Source: Acidobacteriota bacterium (GTDB lineage Bacteria; Acidobacteriota; UBA890; WLXD01). From it: DNA of 64,000 nt. The notes under the pieces are model-generated. The model saw only the letters and a program-made list of their open reading frames with translations, had not been told where the DNA came from and did no database searches. Of the stretch, positions 27,021 to 46,940 are shown one piece after another; position 1 is the first letter of the stretch; the number at the start of each line of letters is the position of its first letter. Location of the stretch: NCBI GenBank assembly GCA_965248695.1, contig CBDFKD010000002.1, positions 2,496,001-2,560,000 on the forward strand, given 5' to 3'. Position numbers and translations under genes: made by a program.

Positions 27021-29027
27021 TCAGTGTCCTTCTTGCCGCTCCCACGGAGTCCAGTCGATGCCCATGACGTACTTCTGCATCCACTGGATCTCTTCGACGT
27101 CGCGTGCGCGCTGGTGCCTCGGCTCGCGGAACCCGTGCGGCTCGCGCGGGAAGCTCACGTAGCGAACCGGCGCTTTGCCGATGTCCTTCAGCGCCGTGAA
27201 GAACATCATGCTCTGCTGGGGAGTGCTCACCAGGTCGCTCTCACCGTGCAAAAGGAGCGTCGCGGTGGTGACGTTGTTCGCGTACCAGAGCGACGAGGCC
27301 CGCCGCCAGTCTTCCGGGTTGGTCCAATGGGCGCCACCGATGTAGTGGTGCCGGAGATCGTAGCTGAGGCCCGGTCCGGTTTCCGCCGTCCAGCTTCCGA
27401 CCATGGCACCCAGGGACGCCGCCTTGAAGCGGTCCGTGTGGGTGATGACCCAGCTGCCGAGGATCCCGCCCCAGCTCCAACCGCGTAGCCCCAGCCGGTC
27501 GGGATCGACGCGGCGCTCGTCGATCAGGTAGTCGACGCCGGTCATCACATCGTCGTATTCGCCGCCACCGACGTCGCCCATGAGCGCGGTCAGCAAATCG
27601 TCGCCGTAGCTGTCGCTACCGCGGATGTTGGGCCCGAACGACGCGTACCCGAGGCCAGCGAACACATGGAAGTCGGACCGGAACTCGTTGGCAAAGTGAC
27701 CCGGTGGACCACCATGGATATCGAGTATGAGCGGTAGACGTGCGCCCTCCTGGGCGTCGGCGGGACGATAGAGGACTCCCTCGATCTCCATCCCGTCCTC
27801 GCTCGCCCAACCTACGATCTCCGCCTCCGCGAGCCGGATCTCCTCGTCGATCCACGGATTGGCGTTGGTCAGTCGAACAGGCTCGAAGTCCGCCGTCGAG
27901 GAAGCGTACAGATCCGTCGGTGTCTGGAAGTCGTTGAACGAGTACACCATCCGCCGTTGGTCGGCGGAGAAATCGAGCGCGCGAAGCGTACCGGCAACGC
28001 TGGTTACATCGGTGACCTGGCCGGTAGCGATGTCGATTCGGTGCAGGTTGCTGTTGGTACGGCGGGTCTCGCCGAACAAGAGGCTCTTACCGTCAGGAGC
28101 CCACGTGAGGCCCGAGATCTGACCCTGCTGCTGGCCTTCCAGCTTTCGCTTCTCACCTGTGTCGACGTTCATCACCCACACGAAGCCGTGGGTCAGATCG
28201 AACTCGTCGTCTGTAGGCGCGTGGAACGCAATTGTCGTCGCCTCCGGGGCCCACCGGGCGCTCTGCTCGGGCGCGTTGTTGTCTGTCAGACGAACCAGCT
28301 GCCCGCTTCCGGTGTCGAGCCGATATAGCTCCGACAGATGGAAGTAGTTGTCGGCATCTTGTCGCGTTGCCGAGAAAACGACTCGTCTACCGTCGGCCGT
28401 TACGTCGAAGCCATCGACGATGAGCTCCTCATCCGTGAGGCGTGCCGCGCGCCTGGATGAGAGGTCGAACACCCAGAGATTGCGCCAGCTGGCCTCCTGT
28501 CGGCCATTCGGACCCTCGCGGACGTAAAACGCGTCGGCGCCCCTGTCGTACTCCTCCTGTTCCTCACGACTTCTCACTTCGTCGGCGGTGAAGAACATCT
28601 GCTGCGCATCGGCGGTCCATCGATAGGCGACGACGCCCGCCTCATGATCCGTCAGCTGCTGCGCCTCGCCGCCGGTGAGGCTGATCCGGAATACCTGCTC
28701 GCTGCCGTCGACCGACCTCAGGAACGACAGGTGCTCACCGTCCGGAACGAACTGGAAAGCGCTGCCGCCTGCATCGCCGATGAATTCCTTCGCCTCTCCG
28801 CCGTCCGCGGCAATGAGATAGTGCCGTAGCCTTCGACGATTCTGCTCCCAGTCGAGCTCTGACTTGGAGAAGAAGACCCGGCTGCCGTCGTGCGACATGC
28901 GTACGTTCTGCAGGCGAACCATGTTCAACGCGTCGTCCACGGTCATCGGACGGCGCCCGACATCCTGTGCGAGAAGGCTCGCGCCGGTGAGCGAGCCGAC
29001 AGTCGCCGCGAGGATCAGTTTCTTCAA
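27021..29027 (-). CDS. S9 family (prolyl oligopeptidase / dipeptidyl-peptidase) serine peptidase, secreted
   Basis: Probable TTG start at 29027 with RBS GGAG. Signal peptide, PD40 repeats, HGGP, GWSWGG, LLHGESD, FPREPHG. Confidence 0.92.
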   Translation of the reverse strand: MKKLILAATVGSLTGASLLAQDVGRRPMTVDDALNMVRLQNVRMSHDGSRVFFSKSELDWEQNRRRLRHYLIAADGGEAKEFIGDAGGSAFQFVPDGEHLSFLRSVDGSEQVFRISLTGGEAQQLTDHEAGVVAYRWTADAQQMFFTADEVRSREEQEEYDRGADAFYVREGPNGRQEASWRNLWVFDLSSRRAARLTDEELIVDGFDVTADGRRVVFSATRQDADNYFHLSELYRLDTGSGQLVRLTDNNAPEQSARWAPEATTIAFHAPTDDEFDLTHGFVWVMNVDTGEKRKLEGQQQGQISGLTWAPDGKSLLFGETRRTNSNLHRIDIATGQVTDVTSVAGTLRALDFSADQRRMVYSFNDFQTPTDLYASSTADFEPVRLTNANPWIDEEIRLAEAEIVGWASEDGMEIEGVLYRPADAQEGARLPLILDIHGGPPGHFANEFRSDFHVFAGLGYASFGPNIRGSDSYGDDLLTALMGDVGGGEYDDVMTGVDYLIDERRVDPDRLGLRGWSWGGILGSWVITHTDRFKAASLGAMVGSWTAETGPGLSYDLRHHYIGGAHWTNPEDWRRASSLWYANNVTTATLLLHGESDLVSTPQQSMMFFTALKDIGKAPVRYVSFPREPHGFREPRHQRARDVEEIQWMQKYVMGIDWTPWERQEGH

Positions 29028-29153
29028 CGGCCTACTCCCTTTGTCGCGAAGGCTATCACCGCAGCGCGGCACAGCGCGGGTGGCAGCACGGCACCGCGGG
29101 CTGGCGGCCCAGGGAGCGTGGCATGGAGGCCGGCCGACTCTAGCTAGGGCGAC

Positions 29154-31736: not shown

Positions 31737-32657
31737 TCAACGGTCCTTGAACTTCCGATCGGGCAGTCCTCGCACGCCGTCGGGAACGACCTGATAGACG
31801 CCGCCCGCCTCGGGCGTTCGGGCCAGCTCTTCATCGTTCATCTGTTGCCGCGCCGACGTGATGTACAGCTGGTCGAGGTCAGGTCCGCCAAAGGCCACGC
31901 AGGTCGGGTTCTTCGCCGGCACGGCAATCTCACGATCGATGCTGCCCTGTGGTGTGTAGCGTCGCACTATGGCGCCACGCCACTCGGCATTCCACAGGCA
32001 TCCGTCTGCGTCTATGACGGAACCGTCTGGGAACCCCTGGTTCGCGTCGAAACGGACGAACTCACGGATGTTCGCCACGCTGGCTTCGTCGGCGTCGTAA
32101 TCACACTGCATGATGCGTCGCTCGCGCGTATCGCAGTAGTACATCGTCGTTCCGTCCGGGCTGAAACAGATGCTGTTGGAGGTAACGACCGCGCCCAGGC
32201 CCAGGCGGCGTAGGCCCCGTTGCCAGGAGAACTGATAGAAGGCTCCGAGCGGCGCCTTCTCGCGAACTTCGTTGAGCGTCCCGAAGACGAAGTTGCCGGA
32301 GCGGTCAGTGCGACCGTCGTTCACGCGCGTCGAAGGCTGGGAGCCTTCGACGGAAACGAGCGGTGTGATAGCCAGAGTTTCAGCCCCACCCGGTACTTCT
32401 GCGTCTCGAGCCGCATCGATATCGGCGAGGCAGAGCTGCTTCGCGAGCCCGAGCAGCAGCTTGCCGGATTCGCACAGGGCGAACGAGCCGAGTCGATCGG
32501 GTAGCGACCAGGTGCGTGCGCTATCCGCCCCGTGCGCATGCATCCACAGCTGCGATTCCTGGATATCCGTCCACAGCAACGCGTGCCGGCCCTCGCACCA
32601 CGTGATGCCTTCGCCGAGGGTGCATCGCGCGTCCACCCACAGGGTCGCCGTCTTCAA
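31737..32657 (-). CDS. SMP-30/gluconolactonase/LRE family protein
   Basis: LGEG.TW, LLWTDI, RVNDGRTD..G, SNSICFSPDG, PDGSVIDADGCLWNA, PTCVAFGG..L..LYITSA. Confidence 0.93.
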   Translation of the reverse strand: MKTATLWVDARCTLGEGITWCEGRHALLWTDIQESQLWMHAHGADSARTWSLPDRLGSFALCESGKLLLGLAKQLCLADIDAARDAEVPGGAETLAITPLVSVEGSQPSTRVNDGRTDRSGNFVFGTLNEVREKAPLGAFYQFSWQRGLRRLGLGAVVTSNSICFSPDGTTMYYCDTRERRIMQCDYDADEASVANIREFVRFDANQGFPDGSVIDADGCLWNAEWRGAIVRRYTPQGSIDREIAVPAKNPTCVAFGGPDLDQLYITSARQQMNDEELARTPEAGGVYQVVPDGVRGLPDRKFKDR

Positions 32658-32664
32658 GTCGCGG

Positions 32665-34368
32665 TCATCCGGCGATCGAGTCCCAGTTCTCCACTAGGTG
32701 ATCGGCGGCGCGCCAGGCGAGCGCCTGTACGGTGAGCGTCGGGTTGCGCGCACCACTGGTGCCCATGACGGAGGCTCCGAGCACGCCGAGATTGGGCGCC
32801 TCGTGTGAAAAGCCCCAGCGGTCGACGACGTTGGTCGCAGGGTTGTCGCCCATGCGCGTGCCGCCGTAGGCGTGATCCGTCGGCCCCATAGTGCCGAGCG
32901 AGCGCCGGGAGACCTCCACCGCGCCCGCCTCCATGTACCACTGCTCCATCTTGTCCAGCAGGAAGCTGTGGAGCTTGTTCTCGTTGTCCTTGAAATCCGC
33001 CGTGATACGACACACCGGATCGCCGAGAGGATCCTTCACGGTGGGATGCAGATCGAGGTAGTTGTCCTCGTACGGCAGCGTCGTCGCCTGGATGAAGGGC
33101 CGGTTGGAGCGGTCGGCGTTCTCGCTGACGAACGACTTCCATGCGGAGCCCCAGCGCGGCGCGCGCCCGAACGTGCTCATGCCGGCAGCGCTGATCGGCT
33201 TGCGCTCGGTGTGTACCCACAGGTTGCCGCCACCAATGAAATCCAGCTCGTCGTGGTCGAAGTTGTCATCGGCCCAGTCGTCGATCGCCACCCCCTGTGC
33301 CGGCAGGCCATACCAGGTGTTGAGATCGCGCGGAAAGAGCGCCTCGACGCCGGAGAACATGGCGTGGCTCATGTAATGCCTGCCGACCTGACCGCCATTG
33401 TTCGACAGACCGTGCGGATACTTGGCCGACTTCGACATCAGCAGAAGCCGTACGTTCTCGTAGGTGAAGCTGGCTACCAGCACCACCGACGCCGGCTGGA
33501 AGTAGGTCTCGCCGTCCTTGAGGTAGTGAACGCCGCGAGCGCGCCCGTCGTCAGATTCGGCGATTCGCAGCACATGAGCCCGCGGCACGACCTGCAGGTT
33601 CCCGGTGTCGATTGCCCTGGGAATGGTCGTTACCGCGGTCGAGTTCTTGGCGCTGACGTGACAACCACCGCGGCTACAGAAACCGTGATAAACGCAGGCC
33701 GACCGGTCCTGGTACGGCTGTGAGTTGATCGCCGCCGGGCCCGGGAAGGGGTGCCAATCGAGCCCTCGCGCCGCACCCGACATGAGCTCGGTGAAGCCCG
33801 TGCCCCGAAGTGGTGGCATCGGAAACTCACGCCGGCGCGGCCCCTCGAAGATGTTGCCGCCCTCGTCCAGCTCGCCGTTGACGTTGCCGGCCTTGCCCGA
33901 GACCCCGATCTCGTACTCGACGCGGTCGTAATAAGGCTCGAGCTCCTCCAGCCCGAACGGCCAGTCCTCCACGGTAGAGCCCGCCGGGATGCGCCCGGCA
34001 CCGTAGCGCCGAGTGGTCTCTCTCACAACCTTGAAGTCCCACGGGTTGAGACGCCAGCTCTGCGCCCAGTAATGAAGCGAAGTGCCGCCGACGGCGTTCA
34101 TCATCGGGTGGACGGAGTACCGCGGCGACTCGGGTGCCGTGGCGCTCGAACGGTGCACCGGAACCTCGCGGTTCGCCTTCTGCACCGCGCGTGGCCAACC
34201 GCGCCGGTGCTGTAGCTCGTCGGGGGCGAAGTCGGACGGACCCATCCAGTCTCCGGCTTCCAGCCCGATGACTTCGAGCCCGGCCTCTGCCAGCGGCAGG
34301 GCGGCCACACCGCCGACGGCGCCGAGGCCGACGATGACCACGTCGGTCTTCTTCAGCTCAACGGCCAC
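32665..34368 (-). CDS. GMC-family FAD oxidoreductase (gluconate 2-dehydrogenase large-subunit-like)
   Basis: DVVIVGLGAVGG, GGTSLHY, CVYHGFC..GGC, ENVRLLL.S, HAYGGTRMG, NPTLT.QALAW. GTG start at about 34368 (or 34374) overlaps the small-subunit stop. Confidence 0.9.
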   Translation of the reverse strand: MAVELKKTDVVIVGLGAVGGVAALPLAEAGLEVIGLEAGDWMGPSDFAPDELQHRRGWPRAVQKANREVPVHRSSATAPESPRYSVHPMMNAVGGTSLHYWAQSWRLNPWDFKVVRETTRRYGAGRIPAGSTVEDWPFGLEELEPYYDRVEYEIGVSGKAGNVNGELDEGGNIFEGPRRREFPMPPLRGTGFTELMSGAARGLDWHPFPGPAAINSQPYQDRSACVYHGFCSRGGCHVSAKNSTAVTTIPRAIDTGNLQVVPRAHVLRIAESDDGRARGVHYLKDGETYFQPASVVLVASFTYENVRLLLMSKSAKYPHGLSNNGGQVGRHYMSHAMFSGVEALFPRDLNTWYGLPAQGVAIDDWADDNFDHDELDFIGGGNLWVHTERKPISAAGMSTFGRAPRWGSAWKSFVSENADRSNRPFIQATTLPYEDNYLDLHPTVKDPLGDPVCRITADFKDNENKLHSFLLDKMEQWYMEAGAVEVSRRSLGTMGPTDHAYGGTRMGDNPATNVVDRWGFSHEAPNLGVLGASVMGTSGARNPTLTVQALAWRAADHLVENWDSIAG

Positions 34369-35035
34369 GGCCACCGCCCGGGGTAGAAAACGCCCGATAG
34401 TCGTATGCTGAACGCCCACTCGACTCCACACCCACGTCCATTTGCTGCTGCGACTCGGTAACCACGACTCGCACACCCGGGTAACCGATCAACTCCCAGC
34501 CGACCAGATCGCGATTGCCGCCATAGTGTGGGTCGCAGAAGGTCCCCTCGATGGTGTGTGACCGGAGCAGCCCGAAGAACTCTCCCGAGCTCGTATCGAA
34601 GCCCGTGGCGTTATCCCCCTCCATGTCACGCAGAACATCGTCCTGATCGTCGGCCGACAGCCGGGCGAAGCGCGCGCCGCGCGTGGCCTCGGCGAACCTG
34701 TCCACCGCTGCCAGACCCGCCGAGTACGCGCCCCGATGCGTCGCCAGGGCGCCGGAGAGGCCGCGGTCGATGTAGCGGGCGGCGCCCGCTTCGGTAGCGC
34801 CGGGGCCGTTTTCGTCAGTGGGTATCAGGCGCGCTACGATCGCCTCGAGTACGTCAGACTCCGCTGCGGTGAGGGTTTCGAAGGCGCCCTGGGTACGCTC
34901 GGAGCTCTCGATCGATGCCAGCGCCGGCACCGGCAACGTCGCCGTCGCCCCGACGATTCCGGCACGCTTCAGCAGCTCGCGTCGCGACACCCCTCGGCCG
35001 GCGGCGAGCGCCCGGATGAACTCCCTGATCCTCAT
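34358..35035 (-). CDS. Gluconate 2-dehydrogenase subunit 3 family (Tat small subunit)
   Basis: SRRELLK Tat motif, RLIP.DE.GPGA.EAGA..YID, EGTFCDP.YGGN....GW.LIGYPG. Confidence 0.9.
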   Translation of the reverse strand: MRIREFIRALAAGRGVSRRELLKRAGIVGATATLPVPALASIESSERTQGAFETLTAAESDVLEAIVARLIPTDENGPGATEAGAARYIDRGLSGALATHRGAYSAGLAAVDRFAEATRGARFARLSADDQDDVLRDMEGDNATGFDTSSGEFFGLLRSHTIEGTFCDPHYGGNRDLVGWELIGYPGVRVVVTESQQQMDVGVESSGRSAYDYRAFSTPGGGRGR

Positions 35036-35096
35036 CGACGTTTCTCCGGCTCCAGTCCTGCCCTCGCTTCCTTCCCGTCAGTCTCGCGCTCGAGCG

Positions 35097-35792
35097 TCAG
35101 TGGTCCCCGTGCGCCGCTGCGATGCGCTCGAGACGAAGCTGCTCGCCCACCCAAACAGCGGTGACCTCGACCTGCTGGCCGGCGTGCGCCCTGAGCTCCT
35201 CCTCGAAGTCTCCGGCGTTGACGAAACCGATAACCGTCGTGTGATTCCGTAGTTGGACGATCAGCGCGAGGTCCCCGGCAGCCTGCACCCTGCGGAGTAC
35301 CCACGCGGCTGGATCAGGCTCATCCTCGGACGGCGCCAGCTCGACGCGATGCCCGATCAACCCCTGACGTGAGGTACGAAACTCCTCGGGTCGGTTGTAC
35401 ATCAGGGACCCGCCCTGCCTGAAACCGTTCACCTCTTGGGTGCCCAGCGGGCTGACGACGGTTCCGCTCAGCAGATCGCCGTCGAGCTCGAGGTCGTAGT
35501 CGTAGGCGCCGAAGCCGAAGCTGATGTCGGCACCGTCGAGACGCAAACCGTCGACCGGAAGAAAGGTGTCGCGCACGGTGGTGAGCTCTCCATTGAGCGA
35601 CCCGTCGGACTCCTCCAATCGCAGCAGCACGGTGCGAATCCGGCCGGTGGCGCGCTGGCTCTGCTCGCCGAACTTCAGGTTCCAGATCCCGACGGGGTCC
35701 TGCTCGACGACCGGAGCACACCCAACGCCGGTGCCGATAGCGAGCGCGAACCCGATTGCGAGCGCCAGACAGCGAGCGTTGTGATTCATCAT
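35097..35792 (-). CDS. Hypothetical lipoprotein (copy 2)
   Basis: Lipobox-like GVG-C, DPVG.WNLKFG. Clearly paralogous to 37049-37813. Confidence 0.82.
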   Translation of the reverse strand: MMNHNARCLALAIGFALAIGTGVGCAPVVEQDPVGIWNLKFGEQSQRATGRIRTVLLRLEESDGSLNGELTTVRDTFLPVDGLRLDGADISFGFGAYDYDLELDGDLLSGTVVSPLGTQEVNGFRQGGSLMYNRPEEFRTSRQGLIGHRVELAPSEDEPDPAAWVLRRVQAAGDLALIVQLRNHTTVIGFVNAGDFEEELRAHAGQQVEVTAVWVGEQLRLERIAAAHGDH

Positions 35793-35804
35793 TCCGGCAC
35801 GAAC

Positions 35805-37049
35805 CTAACTGGCGCCACTGTCGGTAATATCACCCTCGTAGGAGGGAATGACCGGCTCGTCCAGCTTGTATCGATAGTGGATCCACCCCTCCATCATCTC
35901 GTCGCGCGAATCCATACCCCAGATGACCTTCAAGTTGGGGTTCGGATTCCAGGGGTTGTTCTCCGAGTTGTCGAAGTGCGAGGTGACACGAAGCTTCGAG
36001 CCGCTGGACAGCTTCGTCGGATTCGCCAGCACGTAGGCGATCTGCCAGTACATGTTGTATTGCGGCACGAACAACAGGGTTTCCTCGCGCCCATCGGGGT
36101 GGATTGCCTGGAACTTCATGTCCTTGCCGCGATAGTGCATGTGCGGGGTCATGAGCAAGAGCTCGACCTCCTCGTCGAACTCCGTCTCCGCCACGCTCTC
36201 GTAGTTGGGTTCGTGCGGCGGGATCTCGAAGCTCTGGTCGGTGACCAGGCTGCCGCGGATCTCGTACTCGATCGGGTTCCGGGCCAGCCAGACGCCAACC
36301 TTGGTGCGATCGACCTGTTCCTCGCCGTTGGGGTGGTAGTGCATCTCGACACGAAACTCTGATCCGACCGGCAGCCGATGCGCGCTCCCGTCCGGGAACA
36401 GATCCGGCTGTCTGCCCGGCACCGCCAGGGCAAGTCCGTCCCAGGTGCCGTCGGGCCAGTAGGCATCGACGTTGATGTGATGCACCACCCTGGAATTGCC
36501 GCGTGCCTCGATCGCCCGAATCCAGATGTCCTCTGTGTGGGTCGTGGAGGTCATCACGTGGTGGATGATGTCCGGCCCGGACGCCGGCACGACGAAGTCC
36601 TCCTCCAGCTCGAAGATGTAGTCGGGGGGCCCGAGCTCGGAATCGAGCGCCCAGCCAGTCGGGAACGTCGGCGGCGTGAACGTGCCGCTCCCACGGGGTG
36701 TCCCGGCTTCGACCCAATCGACGAGTGTGCCGATCTCGTCGTCTGTGAGCCGCCGCTCGTTGGCGAAGTGGCCGTACTGCGGATCCGCATGCCACGGGGG
36801 CATGATGCGCTCGCGGACCACCATGCGTATCGACCGAGCCCACGGAACGACGTCGTCGTAGGTCAACAGCGACATGGGCGATACCTCGCCCGGCCGGTGG
36901 CAACCCATGCAGTTGACCGCCATCAACGGCGCCACGTCGTCGGTCCAGGTCGGGGTGCGTTCCTGCGGCGGCGCGCCGGCAGCCGGGACCGTGCTCCAGG
37001 CGCCGATCAACACCAGGGACGCCGCGGCGACGATCAGAGCTTTCCTCAT
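35805..37049 (-). CDS. Secreted c-type heme + PHM/DBH-like dicopper monooxygenase homolog (paralog 2)
   Basis: ATG 37049 overlaps the upstream stop (TGATG). Signal peptide, CMGCH, IMPPW, VVHH, MHYH, PHMH, DEM. Confidence 0.8.
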   Translation of the reverse strand: MRKALIVAAASLVLIGAWSTVPAAGAPPQERTPTWTDDVAPLMAVNCMGCHRPGEVSPMSLLTYDDVVPWARSIRMVVRERIMPPWHADPQYGHFANERRLTDDEIGTLVDWVEAGTPRGSGTFTPPTFPTGWALDSELGPPDYIFELEEDFVVPASGPDIIHHVMTSTTHTEDIWIRAIEARGNSRVVHHINVDAYWPDGTWDGLALAVPGRQPDLFPDGSAHRLPVGSEFRVEMHYHPNGEEQVDRTKVGVWLARNPIEYEIRGSLVTDQSFEIPPHEPNYESVAETEFDEEVELLLMTPHMHYRGKDMKFQAIHPDGREETLLFVPQYNMYWQIAYVLANPTKLSSGSKLRVTSHFDNSENNPWNPNPNLKVIWGMDSRDEMMEGWIHYRYKLDEPVIPSYEGDITDSGAS

Positions 37050-37813
37050 CAGTTGTCGCTCTCCGGTGCAGCTGGGGCGATTCTCTCCAAACGCAGCTCT
37101 TCCCCCTCCCAGACTGCCGTGATGTCGACCCGCTGCCCGGCGTGGGCTCTGAGCTGTTCTTCGAAATCCGCCGCGTTGACGAAGGGAACAGCGGTCCTGT
37201 AGTTCCTCAGAAAAACGATGAACGCCAGGTCCCGCGGCGACTGGACGCGGCTGAGCACCCATGCCGCCGGATCGGGCTCGTCGTCGGGCGGCGCAAGATC
37301 GACTCGATGGCCGATGACCCCATCCCGCGACGTTCGGAACTCCTCCGGGCGGTTGTACATCAGCGTCTCGACCTGCCGGCGGCCGTTGACCTGCTCGGTG
37401 CCACGCGGGCTGACGACGCTCCCGGCCATGAGATCACCATCGATGACGAGGTCGTATGCGTAGGCGCCGAAGGCGAAGCTGACTGTGTTTCCCTCGACGA
37501 GGAAGTCGTCGACGGGGAGAAACCGGTCGCGGATCGACGTCAGCTCAGCGACGAGCGCTCCGTCGACCTCCTCCACCTTCAGCAGCGAGGTCGGAATCCT
37601 GCCGGTCGAAGCCTGGCTCTGATCGCCGAATTTCAGGTTCCAGACACCGACCGGATCCGGCGCGGCCTCCGTGCTGCAACCGGAGACCGGGATCAGGAAG
37701 CCGAGCGCCAGGAGCACGCCAGAAGCTCCGAGCTTCGGTGAGGCACGCGTCGCCCCGGAGTCCCGACGGCCACGTGGCGACAGCCGGGTTCGGCAACCGC
37801 GGATCCAGGACAC
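37049..37813 (-). CDS. Hypothetical lipoprotein (copy 1)
   Basis: GTG start overlaps the upstream stop (TAGTG). VSG-C lipobox. Shares LMYNRPEEFRTSR, DEPDPAAWVL and LRAHAGQ with 35097-35792. Confidence 0.82.
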   Translation of the reverse strand: MSWIRGCRTRLSPRGRRDSGATRASPKLGASGVLLALGFLIPVSGCSTEAAPDPVGVWNLKFGDQSQASTGRIPTSLLKVEEVDGALVAELTSIRDRFLPVDDFLVEGNTVSFAFGAYAYDLVIDGDLMAGSVVSPRGTEQVNGRRQVETLMYNRPEEFRTSRDGVIGHRVDLAPPDDEPDPAAWVLSRVQSPRDLAFIVFLRNYRTAVPFVNAADFEEQLRAHAGQRVDITAVWEGEELRLERIAPAAPESDN

Positions 37814-39063
37814 TAGCGGGCGCCGCCGTCAGTGGTGAGCTCGTCGTAGGCCGGAATGATCGGATTGGCCAGCTTGCGGCGATAGTGCAGCCACCCCTCG
37901 AACATCTCGTCGCGCGAATCCATGCCGTAGATCACCCGCACGTTGGGGTTCGGGTTCCAGGGGTTGTTCGCTGAGTTGTCGAAGTGCCCGATCGTCCGCA
38001 GCTTGGCCCCCTTGGGCAGGTGAATCGGCTCCGCCAGCTTGTAGACCATCTGCCAGTAGATGTTGTAGTGCGGCACATATAGCAGGGTCTCCTCCCGACC
38101 GTCGGGATGAACCAGCTGGAACATGAAGTCCGTGCCGCGATAGTGCATGTGCGGGTTCAAGACCAGCAGATCGGCCTCCTCCTCCTCGAACACCTTTTCC
38201 GCCCTGTGTTCGTAGTTGGGCTCGTGCGGCGGGATCTCGAAGGTCTGGTCGCTGACCAGGTCGCCGATCACCTGGTACTCGACCCGAGATCGGGCCAGCC
38301 AGACGCCGACGCGGGTGCGATTCGTCTGCGGCTCACCGTTGGGGTGGTAGTGCATCGTCAGCCGCAGCTGTGCTCCGGCCGGAAACAGTATGGCGTTGCC
38401 GTCCGGGAAGAAATCTGGCGGCTTCCCGGGAAGATCGATCCCCAGCAGAGCTCGGCTTTCGTCCGGATGCTCGGCCATGATGTCGATGTGGTGGACGATG
38501 CGCGAATTGCCCCTCGCCTCAAGCCCGCGCAACCAGATGTCCTCGGTGTGGGTGGTGGAGATGTAGACGTGCTGGTAGATGTCCGGGCCGTCGGCCGGCA
38601 TCTGCCACTCCTCGTCCATCTCGAAGACGTAGTCGGGCGGCCCTTCAGAGGCGGCAAGGGACCAGTCCCCGTCCGCATACGTCGGCGTGGTGAACGAGCC
38701 GTCACCCCGCGGAGTCCCGGCCTCGATCCACGCCATCATGGTCCCGATCTCGTCGTCGGTGAGCCGGCGATCGTTGACGAAATGTCCCCACTGCGGATCG
38801 GCGTGCCACGGCGGCATGATGCGCTCGCTCACGACCATCCGGATCGACCGTGCCCAGGGCACCACGTCGTCGTAGGACAGCAACGACATGGGGGCTACCT
38901 GTCCGGGTCGGTGGCAACTCATGCAGTTGGCAGCCATGAGAGGGCCGATGTCGTCGGTCCAGGTAGGCACGCCTTCCTGCGGCATAGAGCCCGAAGCCGG
39001 GAGCGTTGTCCAGCCGCCGATCAGGAGCAGGGAAACGGCGGCGACCAGTAGAGCTTTTCTCAT
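37813..39063 (-). CDS. Secreted c-type heme + PHM/DBH-like dicopper monooxygenase homolog (paralog 3)
   Basis: ATG 39063 (MRKALL...). CMSCH, IMPPW, IVHH, MHYH, PHMH, DEM. Confidence 0.8.
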   Translation of the reverse strand: MRKALLVAAVSLLLIGGWTTLPASGSMPQEGVPTWTDDIGPLMAANCMSCHRPGQVAPMSLLSYDDVVPWARSIRMVVSERIMPPWHADPQWGHFVNDRRLTDDEIGTMMAWIEAGTPRGDGSFTTPTYADGDWSLAASEGPPDYVFEMDEEWQMPADGPDIYQHVYISTTHTEDIWLRGLEARGNSRIVHHIDIMAEHPDESRALLGIDLPGKPPDFFPDGNAILFPAGAQLRLTMHYHPNGEPQTNRTRVGVWLARSRVEYQVIGDLVSDQTFEIPPHEPNYEHRAEKVFEEEEADLLVLNPHMHYRGTDFMFQLVHPDGREETLLYVPHYNIYWQMVYKLAEPIHLPKGAKLRTIGHFDNSANNPWNPNPNVRVIYGMDSRDEMFEGWLHYRRKLANPIIPAYDELTTDGGAR

Positions 39064-39175
39064 CGAGATCCTCCGGCGCGGTGCCCAGTTCGCGAGCCTG
39101 GCTATCGAAACACGGCGTTTCCTCGTAGTCCACAGACAGGTGGAGGAACGAGCGCTACTGTGCTCCAATCTGGCC

Positions 39176-39985
39176 ATGTTCCGCACCCGACACCATCGTC
39201 GCGGATGGGCAGCGCCCGTCGCCGGCATGCTACTCGCCGCCACGGCCACGAACGTCGCGGCCCAGGCCCACAGCAATCCGTTCAACGGCCTGGGTGATGT
39301 TGCCGTCGGCGAAAACCTGTTCCTAGTTCATTGCGGCAGGTGCCACGGCTACGACGCGACGGGCGGTCGGGGGCCCGATCTGACGACCGGCCGGATCCTG
39401 GCGCGCGGCGATGAGGGTCTGTTCCAGGTCGTCGCCGAGGGAATCCCCGGCACCGAGATGCCGCCGATCCATCGCACCGGATCGGACAAGTCGGTCTGGC
39501 AGCTGGTGGCGTACCTGCAAGCGCTGAACCGGGCGCCGGAGGACATCATGCTGCCCGGCGATCCGTCGGCGGGTGAGGCCGTCTATCGCGGCAAGGGTGC
39601 TTGCGAGAGTTGCCACATGGTCGAGGGCGCCGGGGGCCGGCTGGGGCCCGACCTCACCAATGTCGGCGAGCGACGCGCACCGGAAGCCCTGATGGCCGAC
39701 CTGCTGCGGCCACACTCGGAGGTCCAACCGCGCTGGTGGTCGATGCGCGTCACCCACGAGGATGGCACGCAGGTCGAGGGGCTGCGCATGAACGAGGATT
39801 CCTATTCCGTGCGCATCATCGACGGCGACGAGAACCTGTGGTCGTTCGCGAAGCGTGACCTGCGCCAGAGCGAGCGCATCGAGACGTCCACCATGCCGAG
39901 CTACGAAGGGGAGCTCACGCCGGCAGAAGTCGACAATCTCGTGGCCTTCCTGTATTCGCTGCGACGGACGGAGAGACGACCATGA
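39176..39985 (+). CDS. Di-heme c-type cytochrome with putative heme-binding (Pirellula/Verrucomicrobium-type) domain
   Basis: Signal peptide, CGRCH...GIPGTEMP and CESCH...GPDLT...STMP. ATGA overlap with the PQQ dehydrogenase. Confidence 0.88.
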   Translation: MFRTRHHRRGWAAPVAGMLLAATATNVAAQAHSNPFNGLGDVAVGENLFLVHCGRCHGYDATGGRGPDLTTGRILARGDEGLFQVVAEGIPGTEMPPIHRTGSDKSVWQLVAYLQALNRAPEDIMLPGDPSAGEAVYRGKGACESCHMVEGAGGRLGPDLTNVGERRAPEALMADLLRPHSEVQPRWWSMRVTHEDGTQVEGLRMNEDSYSVRIIDGDENLWSFAKRDLRQSERIETSTMPSYEGELTPAEVDNLVAFLYSLRRTERRP

Positions 39986-41682
39986 GACCGCGCGCGCTGG
40001 CCGCCCTGGTCGCCATCACTGTGATCACCGCCCCGGGGATCGCCGTACCGGCGGTCGCCAGCCATGCGCGCCCAAAGGCGCAGGCGGTGGAGCAACAGGC
40101 GGCGGCGGCGGCAGCGGCGACGTCGACGTCGACCCCGGCGTTCTCCCCGGTGAGCTACGACCGATTGGTCAACGCCGCCGAGGAGCCCGGCAACTGGCTC
40201 ATGTACTCGGGGCAGTACAGCAGTCAACGATACAGTCGCCTGGACCAGGTCCGACGGGACAACGCGACTCGGCTGCGACTGAGATGGGTGCACCAGCTGA
40301 GCACCCTCGACCGTGCCGAGACGACGCCGCTCGTCGTCGACGGCGTCATGTACGTGACCGAGTCACCGAGCACCGTGATCGCGCTGGATGCGGCGACCGG
40401 CCGACAGTTCTGGCGCTACGAGCACGACGTTCCCGCCGGTGTCCCCTACTGCTGCGGACGAAACAATCGCGGCGTGGCGATCCTGGGTGATCGGCTGTTC
40501 CTGAGCACGCTCGATGCTCATCTCGTGGCACTCGACGCCAAGACCGGCAACGTGATCTGGAACACCGAGGTAATCGATCAGGCGGCCGGCTACAGCAAGA
40601 CGGCGGCGCCGCTGGTGGTCAAGAACCTCGTGGTGACCGGCATCGCCGGCGGCGACTACGGAATTCGTGGCTTCATCGATGCCTATGACGCAAGTAGCGG
40701 GGAGCGCGTCTGGCGCGTCTACACGATCCCGGCATCCGGCGAGCCCGGCAACAACACCTGGGAGGGTGACTCCTGGAAAACGGGGGGCGCGGCAACGTGG
40801 GTGACGGGCTCCTTCGACCCGGAGCTCAACCTCATCTACTGGGGTACCGGTAACCCCGGCCCGGACTTCAACGGCGAGGAGCGGGAGGGCGACAACCTGT
40901 ACTCGAACTGCGTCCTGGCGCTCGACGCCGACACCGGCGAGATGCGCTGGTACTTCCAGTTCACTCCACATGATGTCTGGGACTGGGACGCGGCCCAGAT
41001 CCCCGTTCTGGTCGACGCCGAATTCGATGGCCGACCGCGCAAGCTGATGCTGTGGGCAAACCGCAACGCGTTCTTCTACGTGCTCGACCGCGAGACCGGC
41101 GAATTCTTGCTCGGACAGCCCTTTGCCAGGCAGACCTGGGCAGAACGCATCGACGACACCGGCCGGCCGATCTTCCGTCCCGGCATCATGCCGAGCGCCG
41201 AAGGCACCGTCGTGTCACCACCGGTCGAGGACGCCGCCAACTGGTGGTCGACAACATACAGCCCCAAGACCGGCCTGCTGTACGTCATGACACACGACGC
41301 CGAGGAGCGCTTCTTCATCCGCGACGACGAGTATGTCCCCGGCGAGCTGTTCGAGGGCGGCAGTTGGGCGCGGACGATGCCGATCGATAGCTACGTTGCT
41401 GCCGTGCGGGCGATCGTCCCGCAGACCGGTGAGCGAAAGTGGGAGCACCGCGTGCAGCCAAGGGGCCGAACCGGATTGCTATCGACCGCGGGCGACCTGG
41501 TGTTCGGCGGCACCATCGACGGGTACATCTTCGCGCTGGACGCGAGCACCGGCGACGATCTATGGCACATGAATGTCGGCGGGAGCGTGTACGCCGCGCC
41601 GATCACCTATCTCGCCGGCGACGACCAGTACGTGACGATCGCAGCCGGCAACGACATCTTCACCTTCGGGCTCGAGCCGTAG
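39982..41682 (+). CDS. PQQ-dependent dehydrogenase, methanol/ethanol family
   Basis: NWLMYSG.Y..QRYS.LDQ, ETTPLVVDGVMY, vicinal CCGRNNRG, YWGTGNP, GDNLYS, TPHDVWDWD. Confidence 0.92.
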   Translation: MRPRALAALVAITVITAPGIAVPAVASHARPKAQAVEQQAAAAAAATSTSTPAFSPVSYDRLVNAAEEPGNWLMYSGQYSSQRYSRLDQVRRDNATRLRLRWVHQLSTLDRAETTPLVVDGVMYVTESPSTVIALDAATGRQFWRYEHDVPAGVPYCCGRNNRGVAILGDRLFLSTLDAHLVALDAKTGNVIWNTEVIDQAAGYSKTAAPLVVKNLVVTGIAGGDYGIRGFIDAYDASSGERVWRVYTIPASGEPGNNTWEGDSWKTGGAATWVTGSFDPELNLIYWGTGNPGPDFNGEEREGDNLYSNCVLALDADTGEMRWYFQFTPHDVWDWDAAQIPVLVDAEFDGRPRKLMLWANRNAFFYVLDRETGEFLLGQPFARQTWAERIDDTGRPIFRPGIMPSAEGTVVSPPVEDAANWWSTTYSPKTGLLYVMTHDAEERFFIRDDEYVPGELFEGGSWARTMPIDSYVAAVRAIVPQTGERKWEHRVQPRGRTGLLSTAGDLVFGGTIDGYIFALDASTGDDLWHMNVGGSVYAAPITYLAGDDQYVTIAAGNDIFTFGLEP

Positions 41683-41691
41683 AAGCGCTCA

Positions 41692-42768
41692 TTACATTCC
41701 CCCGTCGAGCACCTCGTACGCGCGCTCGACCTCGGGCAACCGGGCCCCGATCTCCGCGAGCCGGGGGAATACTCCCGCGTGGCCGCGCAGATCCACCCGA
41801 TCGGCGGCTTCCTGCGCGGAAACGCCCTGCTCGTGCAACGCGGCAGTGCTCGTCCAGAAGTCGCGCAGGTATGCCTGCCACTGATCGATCATCTCGAGGT
41901 CGTGGATGGCACGCCCGTGCGCCGGCAGCATGACGTCGAACTCCAGCGCCTTGAACCGCTCCAGGGTGTCGGCCCACTCCCCGGCGTAGGCGTCGCCCAT
42001 CCACGGGAGCCCCTCGGTGAGCAGATCCCCGGTTATCAGAACCCGTTCATCGGGGAGGTAGACCACGATGTCTCCCCCGGTGTGGCCGCGCCCGAGAAAC
42101 TGCAGCTGGATCTCGCGTCCACCGCGGTGCAGCGTCATCCGATCGGTCATCGTCAAGTTCGGCGGAGTCGGGACGACCGAGTCCATCGCCAGCTTCGTGT
42201 TGCGCAGGACTTCGAGCTGGTGACGCGCGTCCCCAGCTCCATCGGCCTCCTCTATGGCAGCCAGCTCGGCTTCGAGCGCCTCGATTCGTCCCGGCATGAA
42301 CCCGGCAAAGTAGTCCAGTGTCCGTCCCCGATTCGAGTCTCCCGCGAGCACCGCCTGACGGGTGAACTCGTGGCCGATGATCTCCACGTCGTCGCCGTAA
42401 ATCTCGTTGCCGTGCAGATGGTCGAAGTGGAAGTGCGTGTTGACGACGTAGCGCACCGGCTTGTCGGTGATCGCCTTCAGCTCGCCCAGCAGGGCCCACG
42501 CTGCGGCCGGAGAAACGTGCGACTCCACCAGCAGCACGTCGCTTTCGTTGACCACGACTACGGCGTTGCACCACGCACCCAGATTCCCCGTTTCGACGGC
42601 CAAGTAGATGTCGTCCGAGATCGGAACGAACTCGAAGGCTGCACCCTCGTAATCGGAGCCGGCGGGTGGCGTTGCGTCTGCGGGTGGAGATTCGGGTACC
42701 GGCGGCGGCGAACAGGCCGCCGGCAGCGCGACGAGGAGGATCGAGAGCAACACCGCGCGTCTGACCAT
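41692..42768 (-). CDS. MBL-fold metallo-hydrolase lipoprotein (cyclase-like)
   Basis: RBS GGAGG then ATG 42768. PAA-C lipobox, NTHFHFDH, GHTGGD, ITGD, PAHG. Confidence 0.9.
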   Translation of the reverse strand: MVRRAVLLSILLVALPAACSPPPVPESPPADATPPAGSDYEGAAFEFVPISDDIYLAVETGNLGAWCNAVVVVNESDVLLVESHVSPAAAWALLGELKAITDKPVRYVVNTHFHFDHLHGNEIYGDDVEIIGHEFTRQAVLAGDSNRGRTLDYFAGFMPGRIEALEAELAAIEEADGAGDARHQLEVLRNTKLAMDSVVPTPPNLTMTDRMTLHRGGREIQLQFLGRGHTGGDIVVYLPDERVLITGDLLTEGLPWMGDAYAGEWADTLERFKALEFDVMLPAHGRAIHDLEMIDQWQAYLRDFWTSTAALHEQGVSAQEAADRVDLRGHAGVFPRLAEIGARLPEVERAYEVLDGGM

Positions 42769-42933
42769 CTCCACCTCCGTCCCTGAAAGTCTTCCGGACC
42801 GTCTGCCACATCGACACGGACGGGCCACGGTACTGGTCGCAGCGGATCCGGGTCAACGGGCGTCGACCGCACCGGTCCGCCCCCAACATCGGCGGCTTCT
42901 CTCTAGTTGTCCATCGGTACTAGCTGATATGTC

Positions 42934-43737: not shown

Positions 43738-44418
43738 ATGAGCCCCTATCGACCTGAGCAGGTCATTCCGCAGCAACTCCGCAAGATCGTCGAGCCGATC
43801 CCGTACTGGTTCGTGATCGGCGGCCATGCCGTTCGTTGCCTGTGTCCGTACCGACCTACGCGTGACGTCGACTTCGGAGTCCGGGAGGCCAGCTCGATCG
43901 ATGCGCTTGTCGAGGAGCTGCAGCGGAGCGGCGACACCGAGATTCTCGAACGCGGCGACGACACGGTCCACTTGCGATGGGACGGCATCGACGTGTCGAT
44001 CTTCTTGCTCGAGGGGATCGCCAGCTTTACCGAAGAGCGCCGTCTGAGCGTCGAGGGCATCCTGGCTACGAAGCTCCATGCCATCATCGATCGCGGCACG
44101 CGGAGGGATTTCTTCGATCTCTACGTCACCTTGCAGGACCAGCAGCTCGGGATCGCCGAGTGCCTCCGTGCGCTCCGCACCGTCTACCAGCAGGACATCA
44201 ACGACTCCCTGGTGCTGCGGGCGCTGACATATTTCCACGACGCCGATCGGGAAGCTCCGATCCCCGGCGAAGGCGAACGCGACTGGGAGCAGGTGCAGGA
44301 CTTCTTCCTGTCGCGCGTCGGTCAGCTCCTGGTGCCACCCGCAGTCCTGCTGGAGATCCAGCGGCTGCGGATCGATGTCAGCGAGGGCGAAGAGCCGACG
44401 ATCAGATCGTCCGGTTGA
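43738..44418 (+). CDS. abiEii: AbiEii/AbiGii-family nucleotidyltransferase toxin (type IV TA)
   Basis: IGGHAV...RPTRDVDF NTase motif and KLHAIIDRGTRRDFFDLY. Confidence 0.85.
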   Translation: MSPYRPEQVIPQQLRKIVEPIPYWFVIGGHAVRCLCPYRPTRDVDFGVREASSIDALVEELQRSGDTEILERGDDTVHLRWDGIDVSIFLLEGIASFTEERRLSVEGILATKLHAIIDRGTRRDFFDLYVTLQDQQLGIAECLRALRTVYQQDINDSLVLRALTYFHDADREAPIPGEGERDWEQVQDFFLSRVGQLLVPPAVLLEIQRLRIDVSEGEEPTIRSSG

Positions 44419-44443: not shown

Positions 44444-45967
44444 TCAGGCGGTGCCCACGAGCTCTTTCATGTACCACTCGACGAAGCTCGACGGGCCACC
44501 TTCGGCGCGCGTATACACGCCGGCGCCATAGCCGCCGGAACGGACGCCGGCGTGATTGTTTTCCACTACCCAGATGTCTTCCTGGATGGTGACGTGCCAC
44601 AGCGCCTTCACCGCCTCCGTGTCGTAGTCGCGACCCTCTACGGCGTCGGGATGCACTAGCCACATGAGCTCACAGTCGGTGAACTCGGCGTCCCGCGGCG
44701 TGAACCGAGCGATACCGATGTGGTCGTCGTAGCACTGGGCGTAGAAGGAGTAGAAGCGCGTGCCGGAGATGCGCGTGCCGTAGGTCCACTCCTTGATGTT
44801 GGGTAGCAACGGCGCCACGGGCTTGCCGTCGAGCGAGCCGGTCTTGAAGCCCGGGTTGAGGTTGCCGCCCATGCTCGACTCGTACTCCGACGCGCCGCCC
44901 ATACCGGCCTCGTCGGAGATCACGCGCTTGCCCTCCGGGGTCACCCAAGCGGCCACCTGAGTGTTGCGTTCGGCGCGCTGCTCCGACGTCATCTCGGCGT
45001 CCCAGTTGTGCGTCGTGACCAGCGATTTGTGCGACGGACCGCAGTGGTAGCACTCCTGGAAGTTCTCCAGCGCCAGCTTCCAGTTCGCATGGATGGCGTA
45101 GGTGTCGCGCACCGCTACCTTGAGATCGGCGGTGCCGTAGTACTGCAACACCGGACGGATGTCGTTGCCGACCTGCTCCTCGAAGTCCGGTGGCTCGTCG
45201 GCAGACAGGTGCACGAAGATGTTGCCCTCGGCAATCTTCAGGTGGCAGGGGACAAGCCCGTTGGCGGCCGGATCGAAGTCGTCCTGCATGCCGTAGGCGT
45301 AGATCAGCGCGCCATCCGTGTCGTACGTCCAGGCGTGGTACGGGCAACGGAACACCGGGCTGCTGCCGCTCTCGCCCAGTTGCTTCACCGACAGCCGTGG
45401 GTCACTCGGGACGGTGTCGGCGTCGTGGCGGCACAACCTAGAGCCACGGTGCCGACAGACGTTATGGAAAGCGTTGATGTCACCGGCCTGGTTGCGCACC
45501 ACGATGACGCTCTCGTTGCGCCCGAACTGATAGACGAAGTAGTCGCCGGCGTTCGGAATGCGGCTGACGTGATCGGCGAACATCCACTGGTTTTCTTTGA
45601 GGAACGCCTCGTCGCGCTCGTAGTTCTCCTGACCGACGTAGTACTCGGCCGGAATCGTCGTGCCGGGCTGCCAGCCGCTGGCGTACCGCTTGGCCGTCGC
45701 GGGCGTGGGCGCAACGATCGATTCCGCTCCGCTGCCGCCATAGCCCACGGCCTTCGGCGGCGGTGCGATCCGATGGGCGACCGGCTTCTTCGTAGCAGTG
45801 GCCGCGTTGGTCGCGGCACGAGGCTTCGTCAACGCCTCGGCGCGGACGGCGCCAGGAAGCGCGACCGCTGCGGCGCCGGCGGCGACAGACGACTTCGCGA
45901 AGTCGCGACGACTGACCTTGTTTGCCTCTGCCTCGTTGCTGCCGTTCTTGTGCCCGCCGTCGCTCAT
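44444..45967 (-). CDS. Rieske non-heme iron oxygenase alpha subunit with twin-arginine signal (paralog of 17141-18688)
   Basis: RBS AGGAG then ATG 45967. SRRDFAK + AAGAAAVALPGAVRA, CRH...CPYH, ENFQECYHC...H, QEDIW. Confidence 0.9.
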   Translation of the reverse strand: MSDGGHKNGSNEAEANKVSRRDFAKSSVAAGAAAVALPGAVRAEALTKPRAATNAATATKKPVAHRIAPPPKAVGYGGSGAESIVAPTPATAKRYASGWQPGTTIPAEYYVGQENYERDEAFLKENQWMFADHVSRIPNAGDYFVYQFGRNESVIVVRNQAGDINAFHNVCRHRGSRLCRHDADTVPSDPRLSVKQLGESGSSPVFRCPYHAWTYDTDGALIYAYGMQDDFDPAANGLVPCHLKIAEGNIFVHLSADEPPDFEEQVGNDIRPVLQYYGTADLKVAVRDTYAIHANWKLALENFQECYHCGPSHKSLVTTHNWDAEMTSEQRAERNTQVAAWVTPEGKRVISDEAGMGGASEYESSMGGNLNPGFKTGSLDGKPVAPLLPNIKEWTYGTRISGTRFYSFYAQCYDDHIGIARFTPRDAEFTDCELMWLVHPDAVEGRDYDTEAVKALWHVTIQEDIWVVENNHAGVRSGGYGAGVYTRAEGGPSSFVEWYMKELVGTA

Positions 45968-46052
45968 CTCGTCTCCTGCCTGTCTACTGTGCACGTTGCC
46001 GATGGACCGAATACTAGTATGCGGGTACCGCTTCCGGGCCTGGACCTCGAGA

Positions 46053-46940
46053 TCATCTGCCATCGTGCCGTCGATGGCTCATGGTCTCCCGCTGCAGGAT
46101 GTACAGCCCGCTACCCACGATAACGACCGAGCCGGTAACCACGGCGGCGTCGGGCAGGTCGCCCCAGATGGCGAACCCGAACAGGATGCCCCAGAACAGG
46201 CCGGTGTAGTCGAACGGCGCCAGCACCGCGGCGGGCGCCAGCCGATATGCCTGGGCCAGCGTCATCAGAACTCCGACGGTGAGCAGCCCCAGCGCCATCA
46301 GCAACGCCAGATCGGTCGCCGTCGGCGTGATCCATTGCGCTGGCATGAAGAACGCCGTGACCGCCGCCGCACCGAGTATGTCGAACATTACGATCGCCAG
46401 GTTGCTCTCGGTCCGGCTGAGCGCGCGCTGGCTCAGCATCAGCAGCGAATGAAAGACCGCCGCGCCCAGGGCGAACCCGGCGCCGGAGCTGAGAACGCCG
46501 CTGCCCGGGCGCACGATCAGCAGCACCCCGACAAAGCCGACGAGCACGGCTCCCCAGCGGTGAACGCCGACACGCTCGCCGAGCAACGGACCCGACAGGG
46601 CGGCGACGAAAAGCGGCCCCGCAAAGGTGACCGCGATGGCATCGGCGAGCTCCATCTGCGCCACCGCCAGCATGAAGCACACCATGCTCCCGATACTCAA
46701 CAGCGACCGGCCGAGCCGCAGCGGCAGACGACGCGTTCGCAGGCTAGCCCAGCCGGTCGTGTAGCGGGAGAAAACCGCCAGGAGCAACGCCGCGAGCACG
46801 AACCGTATGAACGCGATCTGCAGGAGCGGATAGTTCGGAACCAGCCACTTCAGCAGCGCATCGGTCAGGGTGAGCTGCAGCATGCCGAACGCCACCCAGT
46901 CGATTCCGACGCGGGTTTGCCATTGCTCGGCGGTGGTCAT
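46053..46940 (-). CDS. DMT/EamA family transporter
   Basis: About 10 hydrophobic segments, LLGERVG..RW.AV..GF.GVLLIVRPG, A.A..LAPF.Y. Confidence 0.92.
   Translation of the reverse strand: MTTAEQWQTRVGIDWVAFGMLQLTLTDALLKWLVPNYPLLQIAFIRFVLAALLLAVFSRYTTGWASLRTRRLPLRLGRSLLSIGSMVCFMLAVAQMELADAIAVTFAGPLFVAALSGPLLGERVGVHRWGAVLVGFVGVLLIVRPGSGVLSSGAGFALGAAVFHSLLMLSQRALSRTESNLAIVMFDILGAAAVTAFFMPAQWITPTATDLALLMALGLLTVGVLMTLAQAYRLAPAAVLAPFDYTGLFWGILFGFAIWGDLPDAAVVTGSVVIVGSGLYILQRETMSHRRHDGR

Follow-up and report, generated by a model that had tools for sequence, protein, structure and literature searches.

Introduction

Peptidylglycine α-hydroxylating monooxygenase (PHM), dopamine β-hydroxylase (DBH) and tyramine β-monooxygenase (TBM) are non-coupled binuclear copper monooxygenases that carry out O2-dependent hydroxylation. 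To our knowledge, enzymes of this type are known almost only from animals, with ascorbate as the electron donor. In this study, a gene cluster was analyzed at positions 31737-41682 of a stretch of 64,000 nucleotides (nt) from an Acidobacteriota bacterium (GenBank assembly GCA_965248695.1, contig CBDFKD010000002.1, positions 2,496,001 to 2,560,000), which is referred to as the window, using gene calls from a map of open reading frames (ORFs) and from Pfam and NCBIfam scans. Two of the encoded proteins, termed E and G, share with the animal enzymes a predicted two-domain β-sandwich and the motifs HH...H and HxH at matching positions, with a putative counterpart of the distal Met of the HxH...M pattern. 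However, these proteins are bacterial and predicted to be exported, carry a haem c domain at the N terminus where the animal enzymes depend on ascorbate, are accompanied by a dedicated partner, are ~15-17% identical to PHM and remain below the Pfam thresholds.

Other described systems resemble parts of the cluster. Cellobiose dehydrogenase (CDH) and lytic polysaccharide monooxygenase (LPMO) share its putative logic, in which electrons pass outside the cytoplasm from a dehydrogenase through haem to a copper monooxygenase. This likeness is an analogy only: the core here is PHM-like rather than a histidine-brace fold, there is no fused flavocytochrome, and the haem is of the c type and belongs to the monooxygenase instead of the dehydrogenase. 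Furthermore, the glucose-methanol-choline (GMC) family enzyme of the cluster is, unlike CDH, of the type with a twin-arginine translocation (Tat) small subunit, and its linkage is not conserved. The GMC large subunit and Tat small subunit are shared with gluconate 2-dehydrogenase, fructose dehydrogenase and flavin adenine dinucleotide (FAD)-glucose dehydrogenase, whereas the cytochrome c subunit gene of these three-subunit enzymes is found neither here nor beside 14 orthologs from outside the genus. The pairs MxaF/cL, XoxF/XoxG and PedE-PedH/PedF are of the same kind as the cytochrome H and the pyrroloquinoline quinone (PQQ) dehydrogenase I of the cluster, which are translationally coupled and co-occur at every locus examined; in contrast to those pairs, H is a di-haem protein with an added TIGR02603 domain, and searches of the genome for genes of PQQ synthesis found none. 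The substrates of PQQ alcohol dehydrogenases are alcohols, the kind of product that hydroxylation yields. In methanotrophs, particulate methane monooxygenase (pMMO) is proposed to receive electrons from PQQ methanol dehydrogenase, which oxidizes the product of the hydroxylation (PMC6288188, PMC4658805). This 'direct coupling', in which a copper monooxygenase is fed via a c-type cytochrome, is a closer analogy than CDH/LPMO, although pMMO has an unrelated fold and is integral to the membrane, and the monooxygenase described here would be soluble or lipid-anchored, with a haem of its own.

An earlier note on this DNA, made from the letters alone, had proposed that the whole cluster forms one periplasmic system in which sugar or alcohol dehydrogenases fuel haem-copper monooxygenases. 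The present analysis favors, with a probability of about one half, a region of juxtaposed, separately conserved envelope redox modules, among which a PQQ dehydrogenase and its cytochrome are the best candidate feeder of the monooxygenase, and not one fixed system of seven to nine genes. What is solid in this picture is the monooxygenase family with its partner subunit, and the GMC and lactonase part is not supported.

Results

The gene content and order of both strands given in the earlier note agreed with the ORF map and the Pfam and NCBIfam scans. The nine genes of the cluster, lettered A to I, are as follows.

31737-32657, minus strand: A, SMP-30/gluconolactonase-family protein (lactonase; PF08450, E = 5e-73, 246 bits, domain from residue 14)
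32665 to ~34368, minus strand: B, GMC-family FAD dehydrogenase large subunit (GMC_oxred_N and GMC_oxred_C; the ORF reaches 34476, likely start near 34368)
34358-35035, minus strand: C, small subunit, Gluconate_2-dh3 (PF13618, E = 2e-30, 106 bits; twin-arginine motif SRRELLK)
35097-35792, minus strand: D, partner (lipo)protein, 231 amino acids (aa), two domains, less canonical lipobox GVGC
35805-37049, minus strand: E, monooxygenase, 414 aa; haem c at C47/C50/H51, CuH-type H190/H191/H237 and CuM-type H303/H305, with M385 as putative further ligand
37049-37813, minus strand: F, partner lipoprotein with canonical lipobox VSGC; start uncertain, the ORF opening at the G stop
37813-39063, minus strand: G, monooxygenase, 416 aa from MRKALLV; Sec signal, CMSCH haem c domain and PHM/DBH-like dicopper core
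39176-39985, plus strand: H, di-haem cytochrome c (CGRCH and CESCH; Cytochrome_CBB3, Cytochrom_C; TIGR02603, 99.7 bits)
39982-41682, plus strand: I, PQQ-dependent alcohol dehydrogenase of the methanol/ethanol family (TIGR03075, 563.5 bits, cut-off 480; PF01011)

The monooxygenases E and G are 66% identical, and conservation was examined in an alignment of 42 family members that are 38-89% identical to E. The haem c attachment residues C47, C50 and H51 are invariant in this alignment, as is M83-P-P-W, and M59 is conserved in at least 90% of the sequences; E thus combines CxxCH, the invariant M83 and an N-terminal hydrophobic signal, as a c-type cytochrome domain does. H190-H191, H237, H303-M-H305 and E384-M385 are likewise invariant. 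A search of the PDB with the single monooxygenase sequence gave no match, whereas the profile of the 42-sequence alignment matched DBH (2.9e-6) and PHM (1e-5), with HH, H and HxH falling on the PHM/DBH copper ligands. The alignment of the hidden Markov model (HMM) ends short of the distal Met of PHM, with which M385 is tentatively equated by its spacing and by comparison with the PHM sequence. The AlphaFold2 (AF2) model of E had a predicted local distance difference test (pLDDT) of 87.9 and a predicted template modelling score (pTM) of 0.83, and a Foldseek search of the PDB with it gave PHM (2.7e-14) and DBH (1.4e-13) as the best matches, with a probability of 1.00 and a template modelling (TM) score, normalized to the target, of 0.54-0.65. 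Among the matches listed by Foldseek were 26 PHM entries and DBH, at E = 2.7e-14 to 4.6e-10. In the Pfam scan, Cu2_monoox_C (PF03712) reached 22.4 bits on E and 22.2 bits on G, under the gathering score of 23 bits, and Cytochrome_CBB3 reached 18.1 bits on G, under the cut-off of 27. Since Pfam is just below threshold, the assignment was made from the alignment profile and the fold. On this basis, each of E and G is predicted to be an exported protein in which a cytochrome c domain is joined to a PHM/DBH-type two-copper core, which bears out the fused haem c and dicopper homologs that had been recognized from the letters.

The family is large, with at least 2489 relatives at E <= 0.001 when 8000 candidates were scored, and public sources label its members 'cytochrome c', 'redoxin domain-containing protein' or 'hypothetical protein'. 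The fusions found in 99 longer relatives comprise redoxin, which is common, PD40/DPPIV-type propellers, TPR and hydrolases. These redoxin (AhpC/TSA) domains and the sub-threshold Pfam scores would suit a protein that is not a hydroxylase, in which the PHM-like copper sites serve oxidase or peroxidase chemistry or copper handling. However, the full set of putative PHM ligands is invariant across the family, and proteins with this fold and these ligands (PHM, DBH and TBM) are not known to carry out any chemistry other than O2-dependent hydroxylation; we therefore regard such a function as highly improbable.

The genome holds ten monooxygenase paralogs. One of these (G000 C2:1330068-1332857; positions 5068-7857 of locus L283) is a protein of 929 aa in which an AhpC/TSA redoxin domain precedes the cytochrome-copper portion. 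Four to six monooxygenase paralogs stand in tandem at loci of Blastocatellia and other Acidobacteriota (L015, L019, L020, L026, L054, L064 and L082).

D and F, the partner proteins, share 61% identity, and neither matched a Pfam or NCBIfam family. In iterated HMM searches, a D-type partner lay downstream of the monooxygenase in all eight close-subfamily loci that have downstream sequence, four of them in the genome itself and four elsewhere (L014, L116, L117 and L118). Relatives of the partner were found beside the closest monooxygenase subfamily only and, among 201 sampled genomes of the phylum, the partner genes were confined to the genus of the window. Furthermore, three metagenome proteins of 617-650 aa (P0008, P0028 and P0030) are fusions of monooxygenase and partner. 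Modelling of the monooxygenase with the lipoprotein, which the earlier note had put forward as a check, gave a score for the E-D complex of 0.73 (median of three runs) compared with 0.00 for the best of three controls; for comparison, 58 of 80 solved complexes attain 0.73, as do 2 of 110 mismatched pairs. The runs share at least 71% of contacts, with a partner pLDDT of at least 81. The partner is packed on the haem domain and the CuM-side domain of the model, and the E side of the interface consists of the haem-domain helix 69-87 and the loops 366-383 next to M385, which face D residues 72-78, 94-97 and 115-116. D and F are therefore probably bound subunits of the monooxygenase, and their role is possibly anchoring or substrate presentation.

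The lipoproteins had also been considered as anchors or copper chaperones. The partner alignment contains no conserved Cys or Met, and a chaperone role is unlikely for this reason; the structural look-alikes are weak as well, the N-terminal domain being weakly similar to FABP/lipocalin folds (Foldseek E ~1e-3, TM 0.4-0.5), and the ESM Atlas look-alikes (lipocalin-like and NlpE) scoring 0.76-0.79, which is under the useful level. Anchoring may add to the favored role of bound subunit. The lipobox cysteine is not kept in every relative. An extension of the partner family to Terriglobia loci, suggested by a BLAST-linked cluster, was rejected when alignment and Pfam identified those proteins as unrelated members of the ThuA family. 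At Terriglobia-type loci (L022, L023, L027, L029, L130, L131, L135, L145 and others), it is a ThuA-family gene (PF06283, checked in L027) that lies directly downstream of the monooxygenase. At eight further loci, the downstream gene belongs to a cluster of ~700-980 aa proteins, of which those in L164 and L053 are hydantoinase/oxoprolinase A. Distant paralogs in the genome carry a different partner, X, of 280-290 aa, beside all four of them.

The association with PQQ dehydrogenases was measured in a sample of 160 foreign loci that hold family members, half drawn from genomes and half from metagenomes (80 each), which were searched by tblastn with the proteins of the window (E <= 1e-5). PQQ-type genes were found in 16 of these loci and homologs of cytochrome H in nine. 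Within 1.5 kb of the monooxygenase, there were 16 PQQ-type genes in 410 kb, compared with five in the 1393 kb lying 1.5-10.5 kb away, which gives densities of 3.9 and 0.36 per 100 kb and an 11-fold excess near the monooxygenase. In addition, 209 family genes were extracted, of which five without a recognizable haem motif were dropped; of the remaining 204, 89 were short of flank and 115 were scorable, and 23 of the latter had a PQQ-type gene within 3 kb. On a FastTree phylogeny, the PQQ-positive genes require at least ten state changes and form ten separate all-positive groups. In the genome itself, a PQQ-type gene lies within 3 kb of three of nine monooxygenase loci, compared with 0.38 expected (P = 0.005, 20,000 placements). 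The gene-neighbourhood analysis proposed in the earlier note thus gave a linkage of PQQ genes beyond chance, recurring in about ten clades. The link of PQQ dehydrogenase and cytochrome to the monooxygenase is a real statistical signal, for which several biological readings are considered below.

The arrangement at the cluster is compact: H starts 112 nt from the G start, in divergent orientation, and the start of I overlaps the H stop by 4 nt. Similar cytochrome-PQQ pairs, with PQQ enzymes 52-67% identical to I, adjoin family members in eight foreign loci, six divergently and two collinearly. The divergent pair occurs in the genus of the window and in a Thermoanaerobaculia/Holophagales clade (L021, L048, L066, L074, L076 and L085), which matches, by position, six genomes of one genus, and the other gene orders are cytochrome-PQQ-monooxygenase (L077) and monooxygenase-cytochrome-PQQ (L143). 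A PQQ-like gene with a fused cytochrome c lies directly upstream of the monooxygenase in L043 and L061, both of the loci tested among six with such a gene, and the PQQ enzyme of L073 has an internal cytochrome c domain, so that a fused cytochrome c was present in all three PQQ neighbours tested for it. A c-type haem belonging to the PQQ neighbour, whether separate or fused, fits a predicted haem-to-haem relay. The pair is also a conserved module by itself: an H-like cytochrome lies beside the PQQ gene in 26 of the 26 closest loci outside the genus, and an H homolog lies beside all five close PQQ paralogs in the genome. As a side observation, the translation of I at 40990-41010 contains a vicinal Cys-Cys and, at the putative position of D-x-D in lanthanide-dependent enzymes of the XoxF/PedH type, a D-W-D motif.

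A second, paralogous module lies in the same window.

22457-26847, plus strand: second module, comprising a monooxygenase (22457-23875), a 293 aa partner X (23918-24799) and a 701 aa PQQ dehydrogenase (24742-26847)

Another copy of this monooxygenase-X-PQQ trio, with its genes in a different order, lies at C2:3051717-3056072 (42% identity for X and 50% for PQQ), and two of the three PQQ-linked loci in the genome are rearranged copies of it (PQQ enzyme of 650-700 aa). PQQ neighbours of the three types are distantly related to one another, with 26-34% identity to I. The second module is surrounded by genes for peptidases, namely M24 (18531-20195) and S15 X-Pro dipeptidyl peptidase (20213-22417) upstream on the same strand, and S9 prolyl oligopeptidase (27021-29072) on the opposite strand.

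One reading of these neighbourhoods dispenses with any special partner: the monooxygenase would draw on the general cytochrome c pool, and the clusters would be non-specific 'periplasmic redox islands'. In its favor, each module is mostly found alone, and such genomes are rich in both kinds of gene, with 28 PQQ-type β-propeller genes and the ten monooxygenase paralogs in the genome (G000) and tandem arrays of up to six. However, a non-specific neighbourhood does not account for the excess in PQQ density in the first 1.5 kb over that at 1.5-10 kb, for a link that survives different gene orders and about ten clades, or for a monooxygenase-X-PQQ set that is kept in two rearranged paralogous copies. 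This reading is considered unlikely.

In another reading, the two enzymes are coupled in a pathway: the monooxygenase hydroxylates its substrate, which may be peptidic or hydrophobic, the PQQ dehydrogenase oxidizes the new hydroxyl group, and the return of electrons is secondary or additional. The recurrence of the PQQ association is in agreement with this, as is the fact that alcohols are both substrates of PQQ alcohol dehydrogenases and products of hydroxylation. The flanking M24, S15 and S9 peptidases and the fusions of the family to PD40/DPPIV-type propellers, hydrolases or peptidases point the same way, and a hint at peptide substrates may be seen in these propeller and hydrolase fusions and peptidase neighbours; in addition, locus L048 from Thermoanaerobaculia contains a second PQQ enzyme together with a zinc alcohol dehydrogenase (Zn-ADH) and a hydrolase. 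On the other side, the mutual distance of the PQQ neighbours argues against one shared product, and a PQQ-associated or fused cytochrome is equally explained by the relay of electrons. Pathway coupling is thus a tentative alternative, which we regard as rather doubtful.

The GMC flavoprotein B and its small subunit C show a different pattern. Homologs of the GMC enzyme, the small subunit and the lactonase were absent within 5 kb of the monooxygenase in all 160 foreign loci, with one GMC gene at 6 kb. Orthologs of the GMC enzyme in other families of the phylum are 60-78% identical, and those examined outside the genus (60-75% identity) came from 14 genomes; the small subunit was detected beside 12 of them, and neither the monooxygenase nor the partner was present in the 1.5 kb flanks of any. 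The GMC gene and the small subunit are also paired at three places in the genome. They are therefore an independent two-gene module, the linkage of which to the monooxygenase is confined to the genus, and the claim that GMC linkage is part of the system is not supported. The absence of a tri-haem cytochrome subunit, to which attention had been drawn, holds for the operon, but is not special: because no CxxCH ORF lies within 1.5 kb of any of the 14 outside-genus orthologs, the missing subunit is the normal state of this ortholog group. The notion of a haem fuelled by dehydrogenases is consequently supported in part, for the PQQ/cytochrome arm with its recurrent linkage and not for the GMC arm with its genus-confined linkage.

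The lactonase was found beside the GMC gene in G000 and in the congener G275, but not in the congeners G118 or G069. Its domain begins at residue 14, its first possible start lies 7 nt past the B stop, and it has no signal peptide, for which reason it would be unable to act in the periplasm; it is probably cytoplasmic, as far as the sequence indicates, and outside any conserved unit. With this location, and with two of the three congeners showing no lactonase next to GMC, the proposal that it clears a lactone product loses its support.

A single pathway of GMC enzyme, PQQ enzyme and lactonase, in which the haem is reduced, the lactone is cleared and the lipoproteins anchor the enzyme or act as chaperones, has points in its favor. 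The minus-strand genes form a tight run, with junctions of -1, -1, 12, 61, ~-11 and 7 nt in the order G/F/E/D/C/B/A (the ATG of E overlaps the F stop by 1 nt) and no terminator-like site between them, although the scan itself, which gave no promoter-like and three terminator-like sites, below shuffles, was uninformative. The synteny of the cluster is kept in three congeners (G069, G118 and G275). Moreover, a GMC gene lies within 3 kb of two of nine monooxygenase loci in the genome, compared with 0.08 expected (P = 0.002), which favors the earlier note. However, the second GMC gene near a monooxygenase (C2:1.33 Mb) lacks both a signal peptide and a PF13618 partner and is followed by a GFO/IDH/MocA gene, and its adjacency was judged to be coincidental, though two of nine is above chance. 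The lack of GMC genes within 5 kb in the foreign loci, the orthologs that are flanked by neither monooxygenase nor partner, the lactonase without a signal peptide and the partner without conserved Cys or Met all argue against the single pathway, which is accordingly quite improbable.

The other features near the clusters are as follows.

41692-42828, minus strand: metallo-β-lactamase-fold protein, SoxH-like (PF00753; TIGR04559, 109.8 bits, under the cut-off of 280), syntenic with the PQQ gene across the genus
43738-44418: ORF with an AbiEii nucleotidyltransferase toxin domain (PF08843, 46.5 bits), just past the metallo-β-lactamase gene
17141-18688 and 44444-46063, minus strand: Rieske ring-hydroxylating oxygenase α-subunit genes, which bracket the redox clusters

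Discussion

The favored reading of separately conserved modules starts from the observed gene content, fold, ligand positions, partner fusion and linkage statistics; the electron-transfer steps, the use of O2 and the substrate are what we infer. The core would be a tandem-duplicated two-gene unit of a cytochrome c-PHM/DBH-type monooxygenase and its dedicated partner (lipo)protein. The built-in haem c would stand in for ascorbate and hand single electrons to CuH, CuM would activate O2 and a C-H bond of the substrate would be hydroxylated, while the partner may help to anchor the enzyme or to present the substrate. The electrons would be supplied by periplasmic c-type cytochromes, for which the divergent cytochrome H and PQQ alcohol dehydrogenase I are the best candidate feeder because such neighbours recur across the family. 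The recurrent PQQ enzyme may feed the monooxygenase, use up the hydroxylated product or do both. Candidate substrates, to judge from the peptidase and PD40 surroundings and from the lipocalin-like partner, are peptides and hydrophobic alcohols or alkanes. Electrons may also enter the cytochrome pool from the GMC/Tat pair, the location of which here is specific to the genus.

Several observations weigh against this reading. The copper domains did not reach the Pfam thresholds, and PF01082 (Cu2_monooxygen) had no match on E or G in the Pfam scan. Neither a PQQ nor a GMC domain was seen in any of the 99 longer relatives. No PQQ neighbour lies within 3 kb of 92 of the 115 scorable family genes (~80%), and many of the PQQ-linked loci are kin, such that the counts overstate their independence. 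In the opposite direction, none of the 26 closest cytochrome/PQQ pairs outside the genus has a monooxygenase within 1.5 kb, and one of the five pairs in the genome has a family member nearby. Furthermore, in this 96%-complete genome, PqqC (TIGR02111) gave no match, with a model that matched no control genome either, and the best match to PqqE (TIGR02109) was 61.5 bits, compared with a cut-off of 381; for these reasons, PQQ may need to be scavenged from outside the genome.

A bolder possibility, which we put forward as speculative and rather unlikely, is a self-fuelling soluble loop in the periplasm, in which a haem-wired PHM-like monooxygenase, complexed with a lipocalin-like partner, hydroxylates its substrate, and quinoprotein dehydrogenases oxidize the product and return the electrons via c-type haems of their own to the haem of the monooxygenase.

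A literature search, with subscription journals mostly outside its reach, returned no work on a bacterial PHM-like enzyme with a fused cytochrome c, and a check of PMC5900883 for the terms likewise returned none. What the locus indicates is a large bacterial family that appears to swap ascorbate for a built-in cytochrome c and to add a predicted bound partner. Its recurrent neighbourhood of PQQ dehydrogenase and cytochrome c offers a concrete candidate electron donor and an entry point to the substrate, and the present locus holds all of the candidate parts side by side. It is equally important that the GMC enzyme and the lactonase are the non-conserved parts of the nine-gene picture. If true, the self-fuelling loop would parallel, in soluble form, the debated direct coupling between pMMO and methanol dehydrogenase, and would provide PHM-type chemistry for bacteria without ascorbate.

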